Assembly: GCA_025054615.1 (NCBI GenBank)
Contig: JANWZO010000006.1
Coordinates: 7,596 to 71,595, forward strand
DNA length: 64,000 nucleotides
Direction of reading: 5' to 3'
From: Kiritimatiellia bacterium
GTDB taxonomy: Bacteria; Verrucomicrobiota; Kiritimatiellia; CAIVKH01
Shown here: piece after piece, positions 514 through 35,658 of the stretch
Layout of the letters: every line of letters starts with the position of its first letter
Numbering within the stretch: position 1 is the stretch's first letter
Position numbers and translations under genes: made by a program
The notes under the pieces: model-generated
Databases searched by the model: none
What the model saw: only the letters and a program-made list of their open reading frames with translations
Told to the model about the DNA's origin: nothing

Positions 514-1791
514 TCAACCGTGAAGATGATCGCGGGGAATTTCCCGCCCCTGCGGATCACGCGAGGGATGAGATAGGTCACGGTCAAGCGATTCGCGAAG
601 CCCAGGCGGCGTCACATGTTCCAACCGTTCCGAAGCAATGTGCGCCTGGTCCGTTGGAACCTTCGCGCGGTTCACGAGGAAGGTCTCCCACAATCGGTGC
701 GAACGAATCAGCGCCCGCGCCTGAATCAACCCTTCTTCCGTCAAACGCCAACCGCGGGCATCCTGCGAAATCCACCCTCGCCGGCGCAGCCGACCCAGCC
801 AAAATGCGGAAGGTGCTTGCGCAGCATGCGCACCCCGCTCTTCTCGCCGGTACAGCGATGCCAGCGCGTCCTCCAAGCCGATCCGATATCTCAGGCGTGC
901 CGCGCGCACTGATCGGACCACCAGCCCATACTCTGGCGAAAAGAACAGAGCCAGACCAAACAGGAGGCCGGCGGCGACGGCAGCCATCCCGGCCGAGTTG
1001 GTGTCGCGAAAGCCCGCGAGTTTGGGCAGCTCCAGCGCACCCAGATGCCCCAGCCATACCGAGGCCGCCGCGAGCAACACGCTGAGGCCCATCATGGGCC
1101 CAAAACGCGAGGTGATAAGCCGGGCGGTTGCCGCGGGCACGACCAACAGGGCAACAACCAGGATGCTGCCCACCGTCTCGAAACCGGCAACCGCAACCAA
1201 GGCTCCAAGGGCCGCCACGACCTGATCCATGACACGCGGGCGGAACCCTTGAATCGCCGCGGTGGTCGGGTCAAACGCGCTGATTAGAAATTCCTTGTGC
1301 AACAGCGCACAGACGCCCGCGACCATCACCGCGGCGCCGGCGTTGACCAAAAAGGCACGAGGCACGGCAACTCCGCCGACCTTCACCGTCTCGAGCGGCG
1401 TCAATTCCAGCGCGCCATACAAAACGCAGGAGGGATCCAGATCGACGCGATCGGCCACCCGGACCATCAGAACGAGTCCGAACGCGAACAACGTCGTAAA
1501 AACGATCCCCAGCGACGCATGTTCCTCGACCCGACCGACAGCCGAAATCCATCGGGCGAGAACTGACGTCGCCAGGGCGGCGAGGACCGCGCCTAGCAAC
1601 ATCGGGAAGGTGTCCCGGCTGCCCGTTATAAGGAACGCCACCGCAAGGCCCGGGAGGGCGGCATGTGTAATAGCGTCCCCCAGCATCGCCATTCGCCGGA
1701 CGAGCAGCAGCGAACCAACCATGGCGCACGAAATCGCCGTCAGCGTGGCAGTCGACGCCATCCAAAAGTCGATGGATTGCCAGGGCGTCAT
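514..1791 (-). CDS. Metal (Mn/Zn/Fe) ABC transporter permease, ABC-3 family, fused to a C-terminal DtxR-like repressor domain (YtgC-YtgR-like)
   Basis: N-terminal ~300 aa is a multi-TM ABC-3 permease (TroC/MntB/ZnuB-like). The C-terminal ~120 aa (..WRLTEEGLIQARALIRSHRLWETFLV...ASERLEHV...DPQGREIP) matches the HTH, dimerisation and metal-site region of DtxR/MntR. Overlaps the upstream permease by 4 nt. Confidence 0.85.
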   Translation of the reverse strand: MTPWQSIDFWMASTATLTAISCAMVGSLLLVRRMAMLGDAITHAALPGLAVAFLITGSRDTFPMLLGAVLAALATSVLARWISAVGRVEEHASLGIVFTTLFAFGLVLMVRVADRVDLDPSCVLYGALELTPLETVKVGGVAVPRAFLVNAGAAVMVAGVCALLHKEFLISAFDPTTAAIQGFRPRVMDQVVAALGALVAVAGFETVGSILVVALLVVPAATARLITSRFGPMMGLSVLLAAASVWLGHLGALELPKLAGFRDTNSAGMAAVAAGLLFGLALFFSPEYGLVVRSVRAARLRYRIGLEDALASLYRREERGAHAAQAPSAFWLGRLRRRGWISQDARGWRLTEEGLIQARALIRSHRLWETFLVNRAKVPTDQAHIASERLEHVTPPGLRESLDRDLSHPSRDPQGREIPRDHLHG

Positions 1792-3242
1792 TCCTGTCTC
1801 GCGCCCGGTTTCAAGGGATGGGGGCTTGGCGGCGTTGCGCCGTGTTGCCGGTTCTCCAGAGCATGCTCGAGCTCACTTGCCATGTCGGGCGACAGGAGAT
1901 GCTCCAGTTCATCGGCTGTGCGGTCGGCATGGTCAGGGGCGACGGACGCGTGGCGCACTAAAAAATATTCCCAGAGGCGGTGCAGGCGCACGACCCGCTC
2001 TGCCGAGCGCCGGCCCGCCGGCGTCAACCCCCATCGATCTCCAATACGCTCGACCGCCCCCTCCCGGCCGAGCCGCTCCAGAACTGAACGAATCCGGCGG
2101 CTCGATCCGCCGCGAATCTCTCGAAAGTCCGAGACGGCCATGCGCACCGCGCCGCCTGCATGCTCTTCCGCCTCCCACAGCGTGCGAAGCGCGTGTTCCT
2201 GCCAAATCCGTCGCTCGAAGCGCATCTGTTGCAGGGCGCGGACCAGAAGCCCGCGCGAGGCGCCACAAACCAGACTCGCAAAAAAAATGGCGGCCGCCGC
2301 GAGAACAACAACTGCGCCCGTCGGCCAATCGGGGGCAACCGCACTCCACAGCGCCCCCGCCGCGCCGGAAACGGCGCCAAATCCCGCGGAAATCCATACC
2401 ATCGGCGCAAGAGAATCGCTCCAACATCGCGCCGCCGCGGCCGGAATGACGAGGAGCGCCACCACCAGAATCAGCCCTACCGCCTGCAATCCGACAATAG
2501 TAACCGCGGCAGCCGCCGTCATGAGCAGAGCGTCCAACAGGCGCACCGGCCACCCTTGGACGTGCGCGAAATTGGGGTCGAAGCAAAGGGCCCGCAGCTC
2601 CTTGAACACGAGGGCAACGACCCCTGCGATCGCGGCCGCCGTCGCGGCGATCCGCCAACCATCAGCCGCCCGCATCGCCGCCGCCCGTCCCAGAATGTAC
2701 GACTCCAAACCTGCTGCGGAGGCTCCGTCCATCTGCTGGATCAGTCCCAACATCGACACGCCCAACCCGAAAAACACACTGAGGACGATCGCCAGCGCCG
2801 CATCATCCGAAAGCGGCGTCAGCCGCCGTATGCTCTGAATAAGACCTGCCCCCGCCAAAGCCGCGAGCGCCGCCCCGGCAGTCAACAGCGGCGCGCTCTT
2901 TCCGCCCCAACCCATCGCCGTTCCCAACAGAAACGCCCCGGCGATTCCCGGCAAGGTGGCGTGGCTGAGCGCATCACCCAAAAGCGCCTTGCGCCGCAAG
3001 ACAAGGAAAGCGCCCACCGTCCCGCACGCGGCGCCGAGGGCCGCGACGCCCGCCGTCACCACGCGAACGTTATAAGTCAACAGGCGACCAGGTTCATTCC
3101 CGGCATCGCCCAAGATCGCAGGCGCGCCGAACGCCGCCCCGCAAACGGCAAATGCGAGGCAACCCGCTGCCGCCGCGAAGAGAACCACCACGCCCGTCGC
3201 TCGTCGGAGGCTCCACCTGAAATGGGCTGTGGCTTGATTCAT
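1788..3242 (-). CDS. Metal ABC transporter permease, ABC-3 family, fused to a C-terminal DtxR-like domain (second YtgCR-like fusion)
   Basis: Multi-TM permease followed by ...[45 protein letters not shown]...ADELEHLL..., a DtxR-like winged helix plus dimerisation domain. Overlaps the ATPase gene by 4 nt. Confidence 0.85.
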
Positions 3243-4075
3243 GGTTCACGTTCTGCCGATCTCGCGACCGCCTGTGCCGCCTCTTCCAGCAGCGTCAGCC
3301 GCCCGCCATATGTGCTGTGCAGGTTCTCGCGCGTCAGCACGTCGCTGACCGGCCCGGCCGCGACCACCCGAGTGTTCAAGAGGATCACCTCATCGAAATA
3401 CTCCTGAACCGTCTGCAGGTCATGATGCACTACGACCAACGTCCTGCCCGCATCCCGCAAATCGCGCATCAGGCGAAACACCATTTCCTCGGTGGCGGCG
3501 TCGACGCCCGCCATCGGCTCGTCCATGAAATAAATCCGGGCGTCCTGAACGAGGGCGCGAGCCAGAAACACCCGCTGTTGCTGCCCGCCAGAAAGTCGGC
3601 TGATATGCCGTTTCGCAAAGGCCTCCATCCCCACTCGCGCCAAAGCCTCCATCGCGCGGTCGCGGTGGATTTTCCGGACCCTCCGAAACCAACCGATCTC
3701 GCGATAGAGGCCCATCGCCACCACGTCGAGCGCGCTCACGGGAAAGTCCCAATCGACCGTTTCACGCTGGGGCACGTACCCAATGATCCCCCGCTGCTCA
3801 GCCAGCGGTCGGCCGAAAATCCGGATTTCACCCGAGGCGACTGGCACGAGCTCGAGGATCGCCTTCATCAGGGTGCTCTTGCCCGCGCCGTTGGGTCCGA
3901 CAATCGCAACCATTTTTTGCGGCGGAATATCGAGATCCACATCCCAGAGCACCGGTTTTCGGTGGTACGCCACGGTCAGATCATGGATGCAAACCGCCGC
4001 ATCACGAGAATGTTCCGGCCCGGCCGGAGCCGAAGCTCGTCTCCAGGGCCCGATCAAGGGCGCCCCTCCTTCCAA
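3239..4075 (-). CDS. Metal ABC transporter ATP-binding protein (ZnuC/MntA/TroB-like)
   Basis: Walker [18 protein letters not shown] signature [15 protein letters not shown], Walker B YFMDEP. Start codon uncertain; the long ORF overlaps the SBP gene by 22 nt. Confidence 0.9.
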
Positions 4076-5013
4076 CCGCGAAAACCGCTCGGCGGCGGCG
4101 CTCCGCCCAGCGCGCGCGCAATCGATGTAACATTGTGGTCGATCATGCCGATGTACGTCCCCTCGTAGGTTCCATCCGGCCCCATCGCATCGGAGTATAG
4201 GGCCGGACCGAGCGCAACCGCGTGCCCTCGGGCCGACGCCCCTTCAATGAGGGCCAGAACATTTCGATCGGAAACGCTCGTCTCTACAAACACGGCCGGA
4301 ACGCGCCGCTCGACCAACGTGTCCACCAGCTTTCCGATCCGTTCCAACCCTGCCTCGGATTCCGTCGACACGCCTTGTATGCCAACCACCTCGAATCCGT
4401 ATGCGCGCCCAAAGTAATGGAAGGCATCGTGCGCGGTAACCAGCAGACGGGCCGAGGACGGCACTGTGGAGAGCACCTCCTGTGCATATTCATCGAGTTC
4501 TCTCAACTGCTCATGATAGGCGGCTGCGCGTTCCGCGTACCTTGGCGCCCGCGCTGGATCAAACCTCGACAGACTACGCTCGACGACCCCTGCCGCCTCC
4601 ATCCATAAGGACACGTCCATCCACGCGTGAGGATCCGGAACCCCTTCGTGAACCAACATCCGCTCCGGCAGCAGCGTCTCGACCACGGCAATCACGTTCC
4701 GACCGTCGCGCGCCATTCGCTCCAGCACATCGGCGAGTCGGCCTTCCAATTTGAAGCCGCAGTAGAAGACAGCCTCCGCCGCCATCAGCGCGGCAATATC
4801 GCTCCGCGTAGGCCGATAGAGGTGCGGGTCAATGCCGCTTCCGATCAGTTGCGTTACTTCAACGTCCTCTCCCCCTATCTGCCGAACGAGATCCGCGACC
4901 ATCCCCACTGTGGCCACCACTCGCAGCCGCGGAACGTCTTCCGACGCAACCACCGTTGCCGCAAGAAAAAACAAAAGGGATCCAAACAATGACCGCAAAT
5001 TTTGCACTTTCAA
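4054..5013 (-). CDS. Metal ABC transporter substrate-binding protein (cluster A-I, TroA/ZnuA/MntC-like) with N-terminal signal peptide
   Basis: Signal peptide ([16 protein letters not shown]), TroA-like fold motifs, and position as the first gene of the permease/ATPase operon. Confidence 0.85.
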
Positions 5014-5020
5014 ATTTATG

Positions 5021-5038
5021 ATTTTGAATATTCAAAAT
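5021..5038. promoter_or_regulatory. 18-bp perfect palindrome ATTTTGAATATTCAAAAT in the divergent promoter region between the metal-ABC operon and the DtxR gene; candidate DtxR/MntR-type operator
   Basis: Seen directly: the sequence equals its own reverse complement. It lies in a locally AT-rich 95-bp intergenic region flanked by divergent metal-homeostasis genes. Confidence 0.5.
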
Positions 5039-5110
5039 ACGTGTTGCGCTGTTCATGTCAATCGGACTTTTTTATGCTACTTTCAAAGCGCGACCGGTGA
5101 AACCTGAGCG

Positions 5111-5773
5111 ATGCCGAGCAGCACCGTAGAGGATTACATAAAGCGGCTCTATACCGAGCAAAAGAAGACGCCGGGCGAGCTGGTTCCCATGGGCCGGCTC
5201 GCGGAAGTCATGGCCGTGGTGCCCGGCACAGTGACGACCATGATTAAGGCGCTCTCGGACTCTGGACTCGTCGAATACGAGCCGCGCGCCGGCGTTCGAC
5301 TCACGCCACAAGGCGAGCGGCTCGCCTTGCATGTCCTTCGCCGCCATCGGTTGGTGGAACTTTTCCTCGTGCGCACCCTCGGGTTGGATTGGTCGGAGGT
5401 TCATGCCGAGGCGGAAACGCTCGAGCATGCGATTTCAGAAAAAGTGCTCGAACGCATCGATGCCCTTCTTGGGTTTCCGGACTGCGATCCGCATGGGTCG
5501 CCCATCCCTACTGCCGATGGCGAGGTCGCGCCGGAACATACGTTTTCACTCGCGTCCGCAGTAGAGGGGCAGCGCTATCGCATCGACCGTGTATGCGATG
5601 CGGAATCGGAGTTTCTCCAATTCGCGGAGCGAGCCGGGCTTGTGCCCGGGGCCCACGTGCGAATCCTGCGCGCCGACTTGCCCGCCGATGCGGTAACCGT
5701 GGACGTCGAGGGTCGCGGTACCTCCACAATGGGGCTGGGCGCGGCGCGCCGCATCTTTCTTTCCCCGGTTTAG
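5111..5773 (+). CDS. DtxR/MntR-family metal-dependent transcriptional regulator with C-terminal FeoA/SH3-like domain
   Basis: HTH (LAEVMAVVPGTVTTMIKALSDSGLV), dimerisation/metal site (RRHRLVELFLV...HAEAETLEHAI...DCDPHGSPIP), and C-terminal SH3-like segment (GQRYRIDRV...GLVPGAHVRIL). Confidence 0.9.
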   Translation: MPSSTVEDYIKRLYTEQKKTPGELVPMGRLAEVMAVVPGTVTTMIKALSDSGLVEYEPRAGVRLTPQGERLALHVLRRHRLVELFLVRTLGLDWSEVHAEAETLEHAISEKVLERIDALLGFPDCDPHGSPIPTADGEVAPEHTFSLASAVEGQRYRIDRVCDAESEFLQFAERAGLVPGAHVRILRADLPADAVTVDVEGRGTSTMGLGAARRIFLSPV

Positions 5774-5971: not shown

Positions 5972-7174
5972 CTAATTGTCCGCCCCGCCGACGACCCCGG
6001 CAAGGGTCACATTGCCGTCCGAATTCGCGGTGAGCAGCCGCAAACCGGCTGGCGTCTGAAAAACAACGAGGTCGTTTGGAGGCGCCGACACCAGCAATCG
6101 ATCGAGAAGAGCCGGCTTTGACGGGTCAGTCACATCCAGCATGACGATACGGTCCGTCCTTGCGCAGGCGACCCAGGCCCATACGCGAGAGCCGCTGCGC
6201 AGCAAAGCCAAGGTATGCGGGTCCCGGTCTTTGCGCGGCCGATTTTCCCGAACCAGCGGCCGAATGTCCACCCTCGCGGCGCGTTCCGCCGCCGGAATGC
6301 CTCCAGCGAGGGTCACACGGTAAAAGCTGACCATCTGGGCCTTCTGTTCGGCGACGCCCAGCAAGAGCGAGTTATCTGGTAGGTTTACCAGCGCCATTCC
6401 AGTAGGCCCGCTGCCTTTCGGCAGCCGCAAGATCCCGGCCCACTGAGGTCCGCTTTTATCGAAATTCATCCATACGATAGTATCGGCCGTGGGGACGGAG
6501 ACCGCGGCGAGCCGGCCCAGCGGGTCGACTGCGACGAATTCCGGTTCGTGTCGGCTAAGCGACTGTCCCAGCATCGAGGCAAGACCGGATAATTCCCGAT
6601 ACGGGATTTCCTGGAGGCGATTTTGTTCCCAGCCCTCAAGGTTTCTAAGATCAAACACGCCGACGGAGCCCTCGGTGCGGCGATTGTCGGCTCCGCTGTT
6701 TGCGACGATGGCCCACGCCCCATCCGGCGTAATCGCAACATGGGCTGGGGCGAACCCCACAAGTTGAGACCGCAACAGGCGGCCGGGAGACCGCTCGCGT
6801 AGGTCCAAAAAAAGAGCCTCCCCGCGAGATGCGGCGTCGTTGGGGCGACTCAGGGCGATCGCCAGCGGATGAAAGGGGTGGACGGCCACAGCGACTGCCC
6901 TTCCGGGAACGGGGATGGCTGCCGTGGGATCCGTTGGGGGAAAGGCATCGATTTTTTCGAAACGGGAGGAATCCCAATCAGGACGCAGGAGGTGGATTTC
7001 GCGGGCTGACGGGGCGGCCACTAGGACATAGTTCGGTCCGGGCGCCACGGCGAGTCGGTCCATTCCCGGCCCACCCGCGCGGTAGTCGAAGAGATGGGCC
7101 ATGATCGAGTCGGCTCTCGACGAGGCGGCAAGGCCGGCCAGCACAATCATGGCGAGGAAACAAGTCCGTTTCAT
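5972..7174 (-). CDS. Secreted beta-propeller repeat protein (signal peptide; YVTN/LVIVD-like repeats); function unknown
   Basis: N-terminal signal peptide (MIVLAGLAASSRA) and repeated hydrophobic-strand segments typical of beta-propellers. Overlaps the upstream gene by 4 nt. Confidence 0.55.
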   Translation of the reverse strand: MKRTCFLAMIVLAGLAASSRADSIMAHLFDYRAGGPGMDRLAVAPGPNYVLVAAPSAREIHLLRPDWDSSRFEKIDAFPPTDPTAAIPVPGRAVAVAVHPFHPLAIALSRPNDAASRGEALFLDLRERSPGRLLRSQLVGFAPAHVAITPDGAWAIVANSGADNRRTEGSVGVFDLRNLEGWEQNRLQEIPYRELSGLASMLGQSLSRHEPEFVAVDPLGRLAAVSVPTADTIVWMNFDKSGPQWAGILRLPKGSGPTGMALVNLPDNSLLLGVAEQKAQMVSFYRVTLAGGIPAAERAARVDIRPLVRENRPRKDRDPHTLALLRSGSRVWAWVACARTDRIVMLDVTDPSKPALLDRLLVSAPPNDLVVFQTPAGLRLLTANSDGNVTLAGVVGGADN

Positions 7175-8391
7175 GGTTGGGCGGATCCCTGCGACTCAAA
7201 CATTTGGCCAGCTACTCGCTCGAGTGTTAGATCCGGGTTGCTTTCCGGCGTTCGAAAAACAGGAACGGTGAAGTGCAAATCCACGGTCGAATCCCGTTGC
7301 TTCACCGATACGCGCAAGCTCCATTCAAACGGATCGCCGGTAGGGGGAAGATCATAAGGAATGAGAAAGCGCAGAGGAATCAGCAGTCCGTCTTTGTTTG
7401 GGGTGAACGTTTTTGAATCGATATCCATCTCGAACATCCATTCCGTGACGCGCCGCGCGGCTTTCCGCCGCCGAATGAATCGACTGCATCGAAGCTCCAC
7501 GTGGACGGGACCCTCCGGCTCGATGTAGCGCTTGATGCGCACGACGCCGCTCAGGGCTCCACCGAGAATGCCGGGCCCTTTTGCGAGGACGAAATCGGCG
7601 TCGCCATACAGCCGGGCGATCCGCAAGGAGCGGAGGGCGGTTGCCAGCATCCAAACGCCGGCCACAGCGAACGCGACCAGGATGAGGATGGCCGGCCATT
7701 CGACTCGGCGACCGCCGAACAGCGCTGCAAGGACGGCCACGAAGGTGACGGCAGTCCATACAATAGCGAACAGAAGCGAGCTGGAAGCGCGCTGGCGGCT
7801 TTCACAGCGGGCGAACCCGGCCGCCCAGTCCTCCCGCCATTTCCACGGTTCATCCGGGAACTGTTGACGCAGGCGCCGCAGGGCCCCTCCTCCGAAAAGG
7901 GACCGCACGCCCCCGATCACCAGTCCAAAACCGACGGCTGCAAAAAGCCCGCCCACGCCAAACATAATCGCCTGGACCGGCAGCCGCGATTCTGCGAGCA
8001 GGACCGACTCGGACGGGTTGTCTGGATTCACGAAAGCGTTCACGGGCTCGCCGGCTTCCATCGCCGTTCGAAATCGTTCGTAGGTAGACCGGTGCCAGGA
8101 CTCGTCGCTATCCCACCCCTCTTCCCACGAGACCCGATCGCTTTCGTAATCCGAATCGTCGACGCTGTACGAATATCGGGCGGCCACACGATACATGGGC
8201 GTCCCCGATTTTGAAAAATTTGTCTGGAGCTCCACGTGGAGCAGAGTGGCTCGGACGACAGGCCAGGCAGCGGACCGCTGATATTTTTCTTCGACCTTTC
8301 CCGCCGTCTGCAGGAAGAAGTAGCCCATGACGATAAAGGGTAGCCCGACGAGCACCCACACAAATCCTCCAAATCGACCTGGCGGCTTCAT
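7171..8391 (-). CDS. Membrane protein with two DUF3592-like modules
   Basis: N-terminal TM helix followed by a DUF3592-like segment (..RATLLHVELQTN...YRVAARYSYSVDDSDYES..), then TM helices and a second similar module. Confidence 0.55.
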   Translation of the reverse strand: MKPPGRFGGFVWVLVGLPFIVMGYFFLQTAGKVEEKYQRSAAWPVVRATLLHVELQTNFSKSGTPMYRVAARYSYSVDDSDYESDRVSWEEGWDSDESWHRSTYERFRTAMEAGEPVNAFVNPDNPSESVLLAESRLPVQAIMFGVGGLFAAVGFGLVIGGVRSLFGGGALRRLRQQFPDEPWKWREDWAAGFARCESRQRASSSLLFAIVWTAVTFVAVLAALFGGRRVEWPAILILVAFAVAGVWMLATALRSLRIARLYGDADFVLAKGPGILGGALSGVVRIKRYIEPEGPVHVELRCSRFIRRRKAARRVTEWMFEMDIDSKTFTPNKDGLLIPLRFLIPYDLPPTGDPFEWSLRVSVKQRDSTVDLHFTVPVFRTPESNPDLTLERVAGQMFESQGSAQP

Positions 8392-8464
8392 GACCGGGTT
8401 TATAGCCGTCTGTCCTCAGGATGGAAAGCCGACGCGTTGCGAATCGGTTGTTGCGTGCTAGTTT

Positions 8465-9103
8465 TTGCGCGTGCAAATGAATCGAAGCCCTACCGCCTCG
8501 CCCCGCTGGTTGTGGGCCGAAGCCGTTTTCCTATTTGTGCTGTGGCCCGGCGCGGCCATTTTCATCGAAGGCGTTTCCAAGTTTCTGTTGTTTGCGATTC
8601 CTTTTTTATATGCAGGCGCCGTCTATTGGATCGTGCGGCCCGCTCTCCCACTACCCTCGTGGTCCGGCTGGAAGGGCGCGCTGGTTCGGATGGCTGCCGC
8701 GGTTCCTGTGATGGCCGCGGTCACCCTCTGGCTCGCTCCGGAGTGGTGGCTTGCATTCCCGCGGGAGCGCCCCTTGATTTGGGGGATTGTGATGGCGCTC
8801 TATCCGTTCCTGTCGGCGTGGCCGCAGGAGTTTCTGTACCGGCGCTTTTTCTTCTGGCGATACGGGCCGCTTTTCGGAAAAGCCACGCTGATGATCGCAG
8901 CGAACGCCCTGCTGTTCGCCTGGCTGCATGTGATGTACGAAAACTGGCCCGCGTTTGTGTTGAGCGCCATCGCAGGCGTCTTTTTTGCGCTGACCTACTC
9001 AAGAAGCCGGAATCTGACGCTGGTCTGGATCGAACATGCGCTCTACGGCCAGATCGCGTTCACGATGGGGCTGGGCCGATTTTTTTATGAGGGCCCCTCG
9101 TGA
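8465..9103 (+). CDS. CPBP-family intramembrane glutamic endopeptidase (CAAX protease/Abi family)
   Basis: Motif 1 EFLYRRFF, motif FxxxH (FAWLHVM), and a conserved His in the last TM (IEHALYG); multi-TM. Confidence 0.8.
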   Translation: MRVQMNRSPTASPRWLWAEAVFLFVLWPGAAIFIEGVSKFLLFAIPFLYAGAVYWIVRPALPLPSWSGWKGALVRMAAAVPVMAAVTLWLAPEWWLAFPRERPLIWGIVMALYPFLSAWPQEFLYRRFFFWRYGPLFGKATLMIAANALLFAWLHVMYENWPAFVLSAIAGVFFALTYSRSRNLTLVWIEHALYGQIAFTMGLGRFFYEGPS

Positions 9104-35028: not shown

Positions 35029-35658
35029 ATGCCTCATGCGTTACCTCCACTTCCATACCCTGCGAATAGTCTAGAACCTTATATTGATGAGCAAACCATG
35101 ATGATTCATCATGGTAAGCACCATGCGGCCTATGTGAACAACCTAAATGCCGCATTGGAAAAGTACCCGCATTTACAGTCCAAAACAATCGAGGAGCTGC
35201 TTTCCGACCTCAACAGCGTGCCCGCGGACATACGCGCTGCGGTTCGAAATAACGGGGGCGGCCATTGGAACCACACCTTTTTCTGGAACCTGCTGAAGAA
35301 GAACGAAGGGGCCGGCCCCGCCGGAAAACTCGCAGATGCGATCAACCGGCAGTTCGGTTCATTCGACGGCTTCAAGGATCAATTCACGAAGGCGGCGCTG
35401 GGCCGCTTTGGATCCGGTTGGGCATGGCTTTGCGTCAGATCTGACCACTCCCTCTGTGTCTGCTCCACCCCGAACCAGGATAATCCTTTGATGCTGGGCG
35501 TCACGGAGTGTCCGGGGACGCCAATCTTGGGGTTGGACGTGTGGGAGCATGCGTACTACTTGAAGTATCAAAATCGGCGGCCCGACTACGTGGCGGCGTT
35601 TTGGAATGTCATCGACTGGAACGCCGTCGCGGCCGCGTATGAGCGTTTGGTCGGCTGA
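35029..35658 (+). CDS. sodA: Fe/Mn-type superoxide dismutase
   Basis: [47 protein letters not shown], and DVWEHAYYL metal-ligand motifs. Mn-versus-Fe specificity is not resolvable by eye. Confidence 0.95.

Follow-up and report, generated by a model that had tools for sequence, protein, structure and literature searches.

The window analysed here, 64,000 nucleotides of DNA from a Kiritimatiellae bacterium, harbours a cluster A-I (TroA/Psa/Ytg-type) Mn/Fe/Zn ABC importer. Five open reading frames were confirmed at the positions given beforehand (ORF check), four of which form an operon on the minus strand (514-5013) in the order SBP-ATPase-permease-permease. The SBP is a periplasmic metal-binding protein of the cluster A-I TroA/ZnuA type (4054-5013, minus strand; 319 aa), with a TTG start codon and an N-terminus that resembles a signal peptide. 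It belongs to the ZnuA family (Pfam, E 5.9e-73), and its best NCBIfam matches, AztC and MntC, were each under the cut-off. The motifs DPH (H64), DPH (H129), HDAF (H195) and SDA (D275) make up an H/H/H/D ligand set, like that of TroA. The ATPase (3239-4075, minus strand; 278 aa; Pfam ABC_tran, E 7e-31) was best matched in NCBIfam by the MntA and the manganese/iron ABC ATPase models. Two paralogous ABC-3 permeases complete the importer: P484 (1788-3242, minus strand; 484 aa), 100% identical to the NCBI entry 'MAG: Kiritimatiellae bacterium metal ABC transporter permease', and P425 (514-1791, minus strand; 425 aa), whose start overlaps the P484 stop (ATGA) and whose NCBI annotation starts at Met11 (415 aa). 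An earlier sequence-only reading, which had described the operon as a standard ABC-3 metal importer, is supported.

P484, which occupies the YtgC position of the chlamydial operon, consists of an extra N-terminal helix, a nine-helix ABC-3 membrane domain (residues 62-326; 2265-3059, minus strand; Pfam ABC-3, E 3.9e-59) and a DtxR-like tail. P425, at the YtgD position, has an ABC-3 membrane domain (residues 6-284; 940-1776, minus strand; Pfam ABC-3 at 13-252, E 1.9e-38) and a DtxR-like tail. The Asp/His coordination site of the channel is kept in both, as D90/H94 in GDALSHA (P484; cf. PsaC D46/H50) and D39/H43 in GDAITHA (P425). Foldseek matched the membrane domains to PsaC with E 4e-14 and TM-scores of 0.81-0.85 (P484, against 7kyp) and E 1.6e-13 and TM-scores of 0.82-0.85 (P425). 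The locus thus shares with Streptococcus pneumoniae PsaBCA (PsaBC, 7KYO/7KYP) the nine-helix ABC-3 fold (Foldseek E 1e-13, TM-score 0.81-0.85) and the Asp/His site on TM2; PsaC, however, is a homodimer without a cytoplasmic tail, and regulation there falls to a separate protein, PsaR. Two permease genes also occur in Treponema pallidum TroABCD-TroR and other cluster A-I Mn/Fe/Zn importers in which a metalloregulator of the DtxR family acts on a palindromic operator at the promoter of the operon, but there the regulator is always a separate protein and the permeases are tail-less.

Both permeases run via a short conserved basic linker into a DtxR-family module, as had been proposed from the sequence (PF02742 with E 4e-16 and 4e-20, PDB-sequence matches, and AlphaFold models matched by fold to DtxR, IdeR and DR2539). 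The linker and complete module of P484 span residues 332-484 (1791-2249, minus strand; Pfam, phmmer, AlphaFold, Foldseek), with Fe_dep_repr_C (PF02742) at 407-467 (E 3.9e-16, 59 bits; Pfam cut-off 27). A long helix (332-362) comprises the linker and alpha1 and is followed by HTH helices 370-377 and 381-393, a wing (397-406) and metal/dimerisation helices (408-463); AlphaFold predicts a complete three-helix winged HTH (wHTH) with its wing (pLDDT 92-98 for residues 330-420). The tail aligns to DtxR/IdeR residues 9-122 (phmmer against PDB sequences, E about 1e-6) and superposes on DNA-bound DtxR (1ddn_A) with an rmsd of 2.0 A over 116 columns (Foldseek). The ligand positions H350, H421, E425, D440, D444, E447 and H448, followed by an SPH motif at 473-475, form columns that are invariant across 55 homologues.

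The linker and module of P425 (residues 290-419; 535-924, minus strand) were defined by the same four methods. Fe_dep_repr_C was found at 351-420 (E 4.4e-20, 72 bits), phmmer matched the tail to 5zr4 (E 1e-11) and Foldseek to DR2539 (8pvt_B, rmsd 2.8 A), and the AlphaFold model has a pLDDT of 90. The ligands are a D at the DtxR M10 position, the H and E of SHRLWE, and the H, E, E and H of HIASERLEH; DPQGREIP, correctly picked out beforehand in one permease tail, closes the module (residues 412-419; window 535-558). The long helix (290-319) is followed by one short helix (329-337), the wing (341-350) and the metal/dimerisation helices (352-405), so the wHTH is incomplete: HTH helix 2, some 13-15 residues, is absent. 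The corresponding 13-residue gap relative to P484 is confined, among the homologues, to the Kiritimatiellia clade, where P425 has lost HTH helix 2 and kept its ligands. The claim of a winged HTH in both tails therefore holds for P484 but not for P425 in this clade. The Pfam scan of the C-terminal extensions that had been suggested called Fe_dep_repr_C in both and the N-terminal wHTH model Fe_dep_repress (PF01325) in neither.

The two tails are 34% identical (E 7e-16, linker included), share a derived HRLWE motif and are closer to each other than either is to the soluble regulator encoded next door. As judged from their sequences, every metal-ligand position is retained in both, and in both the linker is predicted to form a single helix with DtxR helix alpha1. 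A frameshift or misassembly that had merged small DtxR genes with those of the permeases, which the sequence-only reading had raised against itself, is refuted by continuous fused ORFs in dozens of species and hundreds of independent assemblies; the linker is moreover conserved and homologous between both permeases, no point in support of an artefact was found, and its probability is negligible.

The gene order was constant across 80 species-level loci. The second permease was cut by a contig end in six of these, and among the 74 assessable loci it was fused in 49 and unfused in 25, so both single and double fusions exist among the relatives, a comparison the sequence-only reading had called for. 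ABC-3 plus PF02742 was present in all of the best 120 homologues of each permease. Double fusion is the rule in the Planctomycetota, Kiritimatiellia, Lentisphaeria and Desulfobacterota loci compared, while most Verrucomicrobiota loci have a single fusion; Chlamydia has a single fusion according to the literature, and fusion orthologues were previously reported in 11 phyla, according to PMC5599777 (citing Thompson 2012). Far from being a peculiarity of this locus, the arrangement with two tails is ancient and conserved and, by sequence comparison, the majority state among relatives.

A close parallel is Chlamydia trachomatis, like the present organism a member of the PVC superphylum. Its YtgABCD has the order SBP-ATPase-permease-permease, and its YtgC-YtgR is an ABC-3 permease that runs on into a DtxR-like module whose ligands are conserved. 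By contrast, here the second permease is also fused, its tail lacks one HTH helix, and a soluble DtxR+SH3 regulator lies next door, with the operator class following that regulator.

This regulator (5111-5773, plus strand; 220 aa) is a DtxR/MntR-family protein transcribed divergently from the operon. It contains PF01325 (Fe_dep_repress, 3e-12), PF02742 (Fe_dep_repr_C, 7e-31) and a C-terminal SH3/FeoA domain (FeoA, 9e-12), and its best NCBIfam match was the Thermus-type MntR (1e-50, 172 bits, under the equivalog cut-off of 350). It has all three domains of regulators such as DtxR, IdeR, Thermus-type MntR and Deinococcus DR2539, including the SH3-like third, and shares with this group the DPHG motif (here DPHGSPIP), the ligands D/H/E/H/E/E/H and an AT-rich palindromic operator (predicted here). 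Its description from the sequence as a canonical soluble regulator beside a real palindromic operator was accurate. The recognition helix VVPGTVTTMIKAL is common to all 20 'type 1' regulators adjoining class A operators (defined below).

Operator site 1 (5021-5038, no strand assigned), which had been noted beforehand, is the perfect 18-bp palindrome ATTTTGAATATTCAAAAT, with the half-sites ATTTTGAAT and ATTCAAAAT and the class A core TTTGA-N4-TCAAA. The window has no second copy of it (chance expectation 0.01 matches). It is separated from the SBP start, which lies downstream, by 8 nt, and shares positions with the -10 of a promoter-like site. Site 2 (4999-5016, no strand assigned; ATTTTGCACTTTCAAATT) is weaker, with one mismatch in the core; it lies over the SBP start codon, at a centre-to-centre distance from site 1 of exactly 22 bp. 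In 14 related loci, too, a strong site is paired with a weak one at this 22-bp spacing. The operator consensus and the second site 22 bp away were derived here by sequence comparison, not taken from the literature, and are putative. The sigma-70-like promoter candidate of the operon (5034-5061, minus strand; TTGACA, 16-nt spacer, TATTTT) is a consensus match alone (1 found vs. 1.1 expected in the region), made plausible by its placement relative to the operator.

Upstream of the SBP gene, the related loci carry two operator classes, A (TTTGA-N4-TCAAA) and B (TGTAGC-N4-GCTACA). Of the 22 perfect class A cores in 926 kb of related loci, 21 fell within the 330 bp that precede the SBP gene. Loci with a neighbouring DtxR+SH3 regulator of about 220 aa had class A sites in 20/20 cases and class B sites in 0/20, while at the 10 loci where a class B operator occurred together with a neighbouring regulator, the latter was always of the MntR type of about 125 aa. 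The association had zero exceptions (Fisher p 3e-8) and also holds inside Verrucomicrobiota and inside Phycisphaerae. Helix 3 of the fused modules (RSWS...), by contrast, is identical in both operator classes and follows phylogeny. Because the operator class switches with the regulator type and the fused recognition helix does not, the palindrome is most probably the site of the soluble regulator. This also weakens the layered circuit proposed earlier, with three repressors on one operator.

That circuit is nevertheless a serious, if rather unlikely, rival: one or both tails would be proteolytically released, as in YtgC-YtgR, and act as soluble metal-dependent repressors beside the classical regulator, either as homodimers or with P484 and P425 paired in a heterodimer. 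Its precedent is the only experimentally studied member of the family, chlamydial YtgC-YtgR, which is cleaved, its tail being a DNA-binding, iron-dependent, autoregulating repressor (PMC5599777, PMC6504234, PMC7755916); gene order and the fusion in the third gene are shared with Chlamydia. The complete wHTH of P484, superposable on DNA-bound DtxR, indicates that selection has maintained the fold of its DNA-binding half. A stand-alone regulator was not seen within 6 kb at about half of the double-fusion loci, and class A operators are present too at loci without a neighbouring regulator. Against release, besides the tracking of operator class, is the conservation of the domains. Over the same 20 genomes, identities for ligand helix, HTH and wing were 0.79, 0.53 and 0.58 in the soluble regulator, 0.78, 0.32 and 0.26 in the P484-type tail, and 0.57, 0.16 and 0.29 in the P425-type tail; the DNA-binding halves of the fused modules are thus far less conserved than those of the true repressors, while all metal ligands are kept. 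Since P425 lacks HTH helix 2, a symmetric P425 dimer on the palindrome is unlikely. The short, conserved linker, predicted to be helical at high confidence and not a floppy tether, offers no obvious exposed cleavage region in the models, and although a single fusion would suffice to make a repressor, both tails, divergent as they are, have been retained across phyla. Repression by intact, membrane-tethered permease tails binding the operator without cleavage would accommodate the full wHTH of P484 and the repression by full-length YtgC in a reporter assay described in a review of the chlamydial work, but it faces the same operator tracking, weak HTH/wing conservation and truncated P425 HTH, and is very improbable.

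We tentatively favour, at somewhat under an even chance, an explanation that assigns transcriptional control to the soluble regulator and makes the fused modules metal sensors attached to the transporter, which might act by feedback inhibition. The first part, control of the operon by the divergent DtxR/MntR+SH3 regulator, is a well-supported inference from the sequence comparisons; that the fused modules are not operator readers and stay in the transporter as cytoplasmic metal sensors is moderately supported. The regulator would bind the tandem operator (site 1 and the weaker site 2), which would overlap the promoter and the SBP start codon. Alpha1 of each tail would be coupled rigidly to the final membrane helix of the permease (full-length AlphaFold models, pTM 0.82 for P425 and 0.78 for P484); in the PsaBC structure this last helix, TM9, sits at the interface of the permease dimer. 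Metal bound between alpha1 and the ligand helix could then alter the permease pair, so that in a replete cytoplasm the tails would throttle import, complementing the slower transcriptional repression. The working analogy is with trans-inhibited importers (MetNI C2 domain, ModBC regulatory domain), in which a cytoplasmic ligand-sensing domain on the transporter shuts import when substrate is plentiful; there, however, the sensor is on the ATPase, not the permease, and is not a whole transcription-factor fold. Neither direct evidence nor a documented mechanism for trans-inhibition of ABC-3 importers was found in the literature. The intact P484 wHTH, the chlamydial repressor and the loci without a nearby regulator count against the sensor explanation. 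Pairing of the tails within one transporter is impossible in single-fusion species, and under two-fold symmetry the two linker helices may diverge.

The tails might instead accept or buffer metal at the exit of the channel, binding the imported ion and handing it on, or be mainly structural or assembly elements that stabilise the permease heterodimer, with no regulatory output. All ligand positions are conserved, the DNA-binding half is weakly constrained and the tails follow TM9, which in PsaBC lines the dimer interface beside the translocation pathway. This option is improbable: the entire two-domain DtxR fold, including alpha1 and wing, is kept and would be needless for a simple site, and a single tail is enough in verrucomicrobial systems, while most ABC-3 importers function without any.

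Whatever the role of the tails, the distribution of single and double fusions, double in Planctomycetota, Kiritimatiellia and Lentisphaeria and single in most Verrucomicrobiota, is informative for PVC evolution, as the sequence-only reading had anticipated.

On its minus strand, the window encodes an operon of four genes that adjoin or overlap, as in the ATGA junction between the two permease genes. The operon consists of a ZnuA/TroA-family periplasmic metal-binding protein (SBP, 4054-5013; Pfam ZnuA, E 5.9e-73), an ABC ATPase (3239-4075; Pfam ABC_tran, E 7e-31), for which the MntA and Mn/Fe ATPase models were the best NCBIfam matches, and two ABC-3 permeases recognised by ORF listing and profile searches: P484 (484 aa, 1788-3242, minus strand) and P425 (425 aa, 514-1791, minus strand). 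Motif inspection located the SBP ligand set (H64/H129/H195/D275) in the expected motifs. The membrane domains of both permeases resembled PsaC (Foldseek, E about 1e-13, TM-score 0.81-0.85). The Asp/His pair that forms a coordination site inside the PsaBC channel (PMC8346216) was kept in both (D90/H94 in P484, D39/H43 in P425) and was invariant in homologues. All features of a cluster A-I/ABC-3 importer were present (TroA/ZnuA-fold SBP, ABC-3 fold with the Asp/His site, cognate ATPase), and the operon almost certainly encodes a functional Mn/Fe/Zn importer. Together with the divergent DtxR/FeoA regulator detected by Pfam, this bears out the annotation of the locus in the sequence-only reading.

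P484 is 100% identical to a Kiritimatiellae MAG protein annotated merely as 'metal ABC transporter permease'. Its residues 1-50 (3095-3242) form a weakly conserved N-terminal extension that lacks a counterpart in PsaC and is also found in many homologues; an extra long helix was predicted there at low confidence (pLDDT 43-68). The extension could serve as a signal anchor or form a tenth membrane helix. The NCBI annotation of P425 begins at Met11 (415 aa), while the longer ORF used here starts at the ATG overlapping the P484 stop codon (ATGA; 1762-1791).

Both permeases end in a DtxR-like module (hereafter, tail). The Pfam DtxR dimerisation/metal-binding domain was found far over the cut-off in P484 (residues 407-467, E 3.9e-16) and in P425 (residues 351-420, E 4.4e-20); the N-terminal winged helix-turn-helix (wHTH) domain, PF01325, was not called in either permease in the Pfam search. 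In phmmer searches against PDB sequences, the P484 tail aligned with residues 9-122 of DtxR/IdeR and the P425 tail with Mn-dependent regulators (5zr4, E 1e-11). AlphaFold models of the two permeases, built from 52 and 55 homologues, were confident (pLDDT 90 and pTM 0.82 for P425; pLDDT 85 and pTM 0.78 for P484), and Foldseek matched the tail fold to DtxR (1ddn_A, rmsd 2.0 A over 116 columns) and DR2539 (8pvt_B, rmsd 2.8 A over 128 columns). These results confirm the two modules noticed from the sequence. The winged HTH attributed to both tails stands in full for P484, where the model has three helices, including both HTH helices, and the wing, but it needs correction for P425: models and alignments showed a single short helix ahead of the wing, helix 2 being deleted. 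In the alignments this gap (about 13-15 residues) was confined to the Kiritimatiellia clade, and planctomycete P425-type tails were full length. In both models, the last membrane helix is followed by a five-residue loop and then by a single unbroken, confidently predicted helix of about 30 residues that comprises a short, conserved basic linker and DtxR helix alpha1.

The metal ligands of the tails were compared with the DtxR columns M10, H79, E83, H98, C102, E105 and H106 in alignments of 20-55 homologues. P484-type tails have H, H, E, D, D, E, H at these positions (H350, H421, E425, D440, D444, E447 and H448), P425-type tails have D, H, E, H, E, E, H, and the columns are invariant or nearly so in both types. 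P484 ends in an SPH motif found family-wide. P425 ends in DPQGREIP, its family having DPHG. Two motif departures are specific to the window: RGGS in place of RSWS in P484 (residues 376-379, 2106-2117), at the start of the recognition helix and with loss of the Trp, and DPQG in place of DPHG in P425 (Q414, 550-552). RSWS and DPHG are otherwise near-invariant in their families, and the core ligand set is intact in both window tails. Aligned over 134 residues, linker included, the two tails are 34% identical (E 7e-16); their similarity to the soluble regulator is lower (46 and 37 bits). Because they are closer to each other than to the regulator and have the derived motif HRLWE in common, they are paralogues within one fused lineage.

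Next, we analysed how widespread the double fusion is. For each permease, every one of the top 120 database homologues had both the ABC-3 and the DtxR-like domain, and many first/second permease homologue pairs lay on the same contigs. The P425 tail alone, used as query, retrieved 529 clusters (50% identity) at E <= 1e-10. Among the best 150 of these, full-length proteins carried the match at their C-terminal end, and in most of the shorter proteins the alignment began where the last membrane helix ends, so these were taken to be pieces of fused permeases. Scanning one genome per species gave at least 495 species with relatives; the ORFs of the best 80 loci were searched with the five proteins of the window. 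Gene order was constant across the 80 loci. The first permease was fused in 80/80, a selection effect that was excluded as evidence since one scan pattern lay in its tail. Among the second permeases, 49 were fused and 25 were unfused proteins of about 300-320 aa, with the remaining 6 truncated at a contig end, so the rarity that the earlier reading implied for the duplicated fusion does not hold. Both forms exist among relatives: in assessable loci, the second permease was fused in 29/30 from Planctomycetota, 4/4 from Kiritimatiellia, 2/2 from Lentisphaeria, 4/4 from Desulfobacterota, 2/2 from Sumerlaeota and 2/26 from Verrucomicrobiota. Continuous fused ORFs are conserved in relatives, which excludes the frameshift artefact considered at the outset. 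In one Pirellulaceae MAG (L053, 7329-8661) the second permease was split into two overlapping ORFs (311 aa and a 193-aa piece with the tail), probably because a frameshift or sequencing error interrupts a gene that is otherwise fused.

The window locus is therefore typical of a large and conserved family in which both permeases are tailed. The published chlamydial Ytg system, like most of the Verrucomicrobiota loci, has a single fusion; the likeness of YtgC/YtgD to the window is one of gene order and domain order alone. Fusion orthologues have been seen in 11 phyla according to a review (PMC5599777). No description of the double-fusion form was found in the literature searched, and its recognition as the common form appears to be new relative to that literature.

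The stand-alone regulator (220 aa, 5111-5773, plus strand) is transcribed divergently from the operon and has Fe_dep_repress (PF01325), Fe_dep_repr_C (PF02742) and FeoA/SH3 domains, all over the cut-off. Its ligand positions (D8, H, E, H, E, E, H, plus DPHG) and its domains are those of the DtxR/MntR family. An 18-bp palindrome at 5021-5038 is perfect, unique in the window and overlaps a candidate -10. A weaker copy at 4999-5016 (core 5001-5014, ATTTTGCACTTTCAAATT) overlies the SBP start codon, a TTG, its centre exactly 22 bp from that of the palindrome. The same pairing of a strong and a weak site at 22 bp was repeated in 14 related loci, which suggests that two regulator dimers could bind on one face of the DNA. 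The only possible start of the SBP ORF is this TTG at 5013, with an in-frame stop upstream at 5032-5034. Only 8 nt separate the TTG from the palindrome, and the candidate -10 lies at a distance of about 20 nt (region 5013-5061), so the leader would be very short and a Shine-Dalgarno sequence would not fit. A third similar site (35559-35572, CTTGAAGTATCAAA), one mismatch away from the class A core described below, falls within a 209-aa ORF, with an 870-aa ORF following about 190 nt downstream; it was rejected because such matches are no more frequent in the window than expected by chance.

Two motif classes were found 5' of the SBP gene in relatives: class A, TTTGA-N4-TCAAA, as in the window, and class B, TGTAGC-N4-GCTACA, often as two copies 28-34 bp apart (L002, L004, L012, L015, L017, L025, L027, L028, L048, L051, L053, L061, L069 and L080). 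In 926 kb of locus sequence, 21/22 perfect class A cores and 16/16 perfect class B cores lay within 330 bp upstream of the SBP gene. Operator class followed the type of regulator nearby. All 20 neighbours of about 220 aa with DtxR and SH3 domains (recognition helix V-x-PGT-x-T-x-M-x-K-x-L) accompanied class A (perfect sites in 11 of these loci, one-mismatch sites in 4), and all 10 MntR-type neighbours of about 125 aa beside a recognisable operator (helix GVSHVTV-x-RTV-x-RL) accompanied class B (perfect sites in 8 of these loci). There were no exceptions where a regulator was nearby (Fisher p 3e-8, the loci being phylogenetically related), and both combinations occurred within Verrucomicrobiota and also within Phycisphaerae. 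Helix 3 of the fused P484-type tails (RSWS-x3-L...) did not differ between classes A and B and followed phylogeny; candidate class-specific residues in the fused recognition helix were rejected, as the best-discriminating columns fell outside helix 3 and looked phylogenetic. On this comparative evidence, the operator appears to belong to the stand-alone regulator, a finding that appears new relative to the literature searched, and in free-living relatives the conventional regulator next door appears to own it. We consider it well supported that repression of the operon is exerted by the soluble regulator through the putative tandem operator.

These data bear on the layered circuit initially proposed, in which one or both tails are released as YtgR-like repressors that act beside the classical regulator. 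The precedent is direct: YtgR is cleaved, also in E. coli, to a product of about 30 kDa and binds DNA with Fe (PMC5599777, PMC6504234, PMC7755916), and the wHTH of P484 is intact. However, for binding to the operon's own operator the comparative data point the other way, since it is the stand-alone regulator, rather than helix 3 of the tails, that operator class tracks. We regard release as rather unlikely, though the main rival, and DNA binding by tails still tethered to the membrane as very improbable. To compare constraint, soluble regulators and tails were taken from the same 20 genomes. Pairwise identity of the ligand helix was 0.79 in soluble regulators and 0.78 in P484-type tails, that of the HTH 0.53, 0.32 and 0.16 in soluble regulators, P484-type and P425-type tails, and that of the wing 0.58, 0.26 and 0.29, respectively. 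Thus, the metal-sensing half of the tails is under repressor-grade constraint and the DNA-reading half is not.

Two possible sources of a free tail were rejected. An internal start at P484 Met340, ten residues before the His equivalent to M10, is not conserved in homologues and was discarded as a general mechanism. An Rce1-like CPBP membrane protease (212 aa, 8465-9103) was discarded as the releasing protease, as none of the 80 related loci encodes a homologue. Homologues of the other two neighbours within 5972-9103, a beta-propeller-like protein (400 aa, weak Pfam hits only) and a DUF3592 membrane protein (406 aa), were also absent from these loci, which places all three outside the system. 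In the closest Kiritimatiellia (L001, L005, L006, L021 and L058), regulator and SBP gene are about 2.5 kb apart, unlike in the window, where they directly adjoin. In L001 the gap (1660-3996) holds, on the strand of the regulator, a gene for a 778-aa P-type ATPase (E1-E2_ATPase and HAD domains), possibly a metal pump of the same regulon.

The reading we favour, at a little short of even confidence, is that the tails are cytoplasmic metal sensors attached to the transporter. The ligand set of each tail would bridge alpha1 and the ligand helix, and alpha1 is predicted to form one rigid helix with the linker that leads to the last membrane helix. Through this connection, metal binding could reach the permease pair and throttle import, by analogy with trans-inhibition in MetNI and ModBC. 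The last helix of PsaBC, TM9, lies at the permease dimer interface (PMC8346216), which would place both tails near the channel exit. No report of trans-inhibition in ABC-3 systems was found in the literature searched. That the near-invariant ligands instead mark a metal acceptor, or that the tails are structural, seems improbable. Beyond the sensor reading, we propose only speculatively the joint scheme in which the paired tails form a permease-borne sensor, a whole metalloregulator fold gating an ABC importer from inside (trans-inhibition, undescribed for ABC-3), the double tail is ancestral in the PVC group, and the released chlamydial repressor YtgR is a secondary exaptation that arose once the second tail and the soluble regulator had been lost.

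To our knowledge, studies of the permease-repressor fusion have been confined to Chlamydia, where it is regarded as a peculiarity of a reduced genome. The family of such fusions is large and its usual form has a tail on both permeases; this prevalence and an operator apparently owned by the regulator change the view of what the tails are for, and suggest fast post-translational control of metal import. For PVC evolution, the polarity would run from double tail to single tail. ABC-3 systems are the main class of bacterial Mn/Zn/Fe importers and several are virulence factors; if the tails do gate the transporter, this would be a new regulatory principle for that class.
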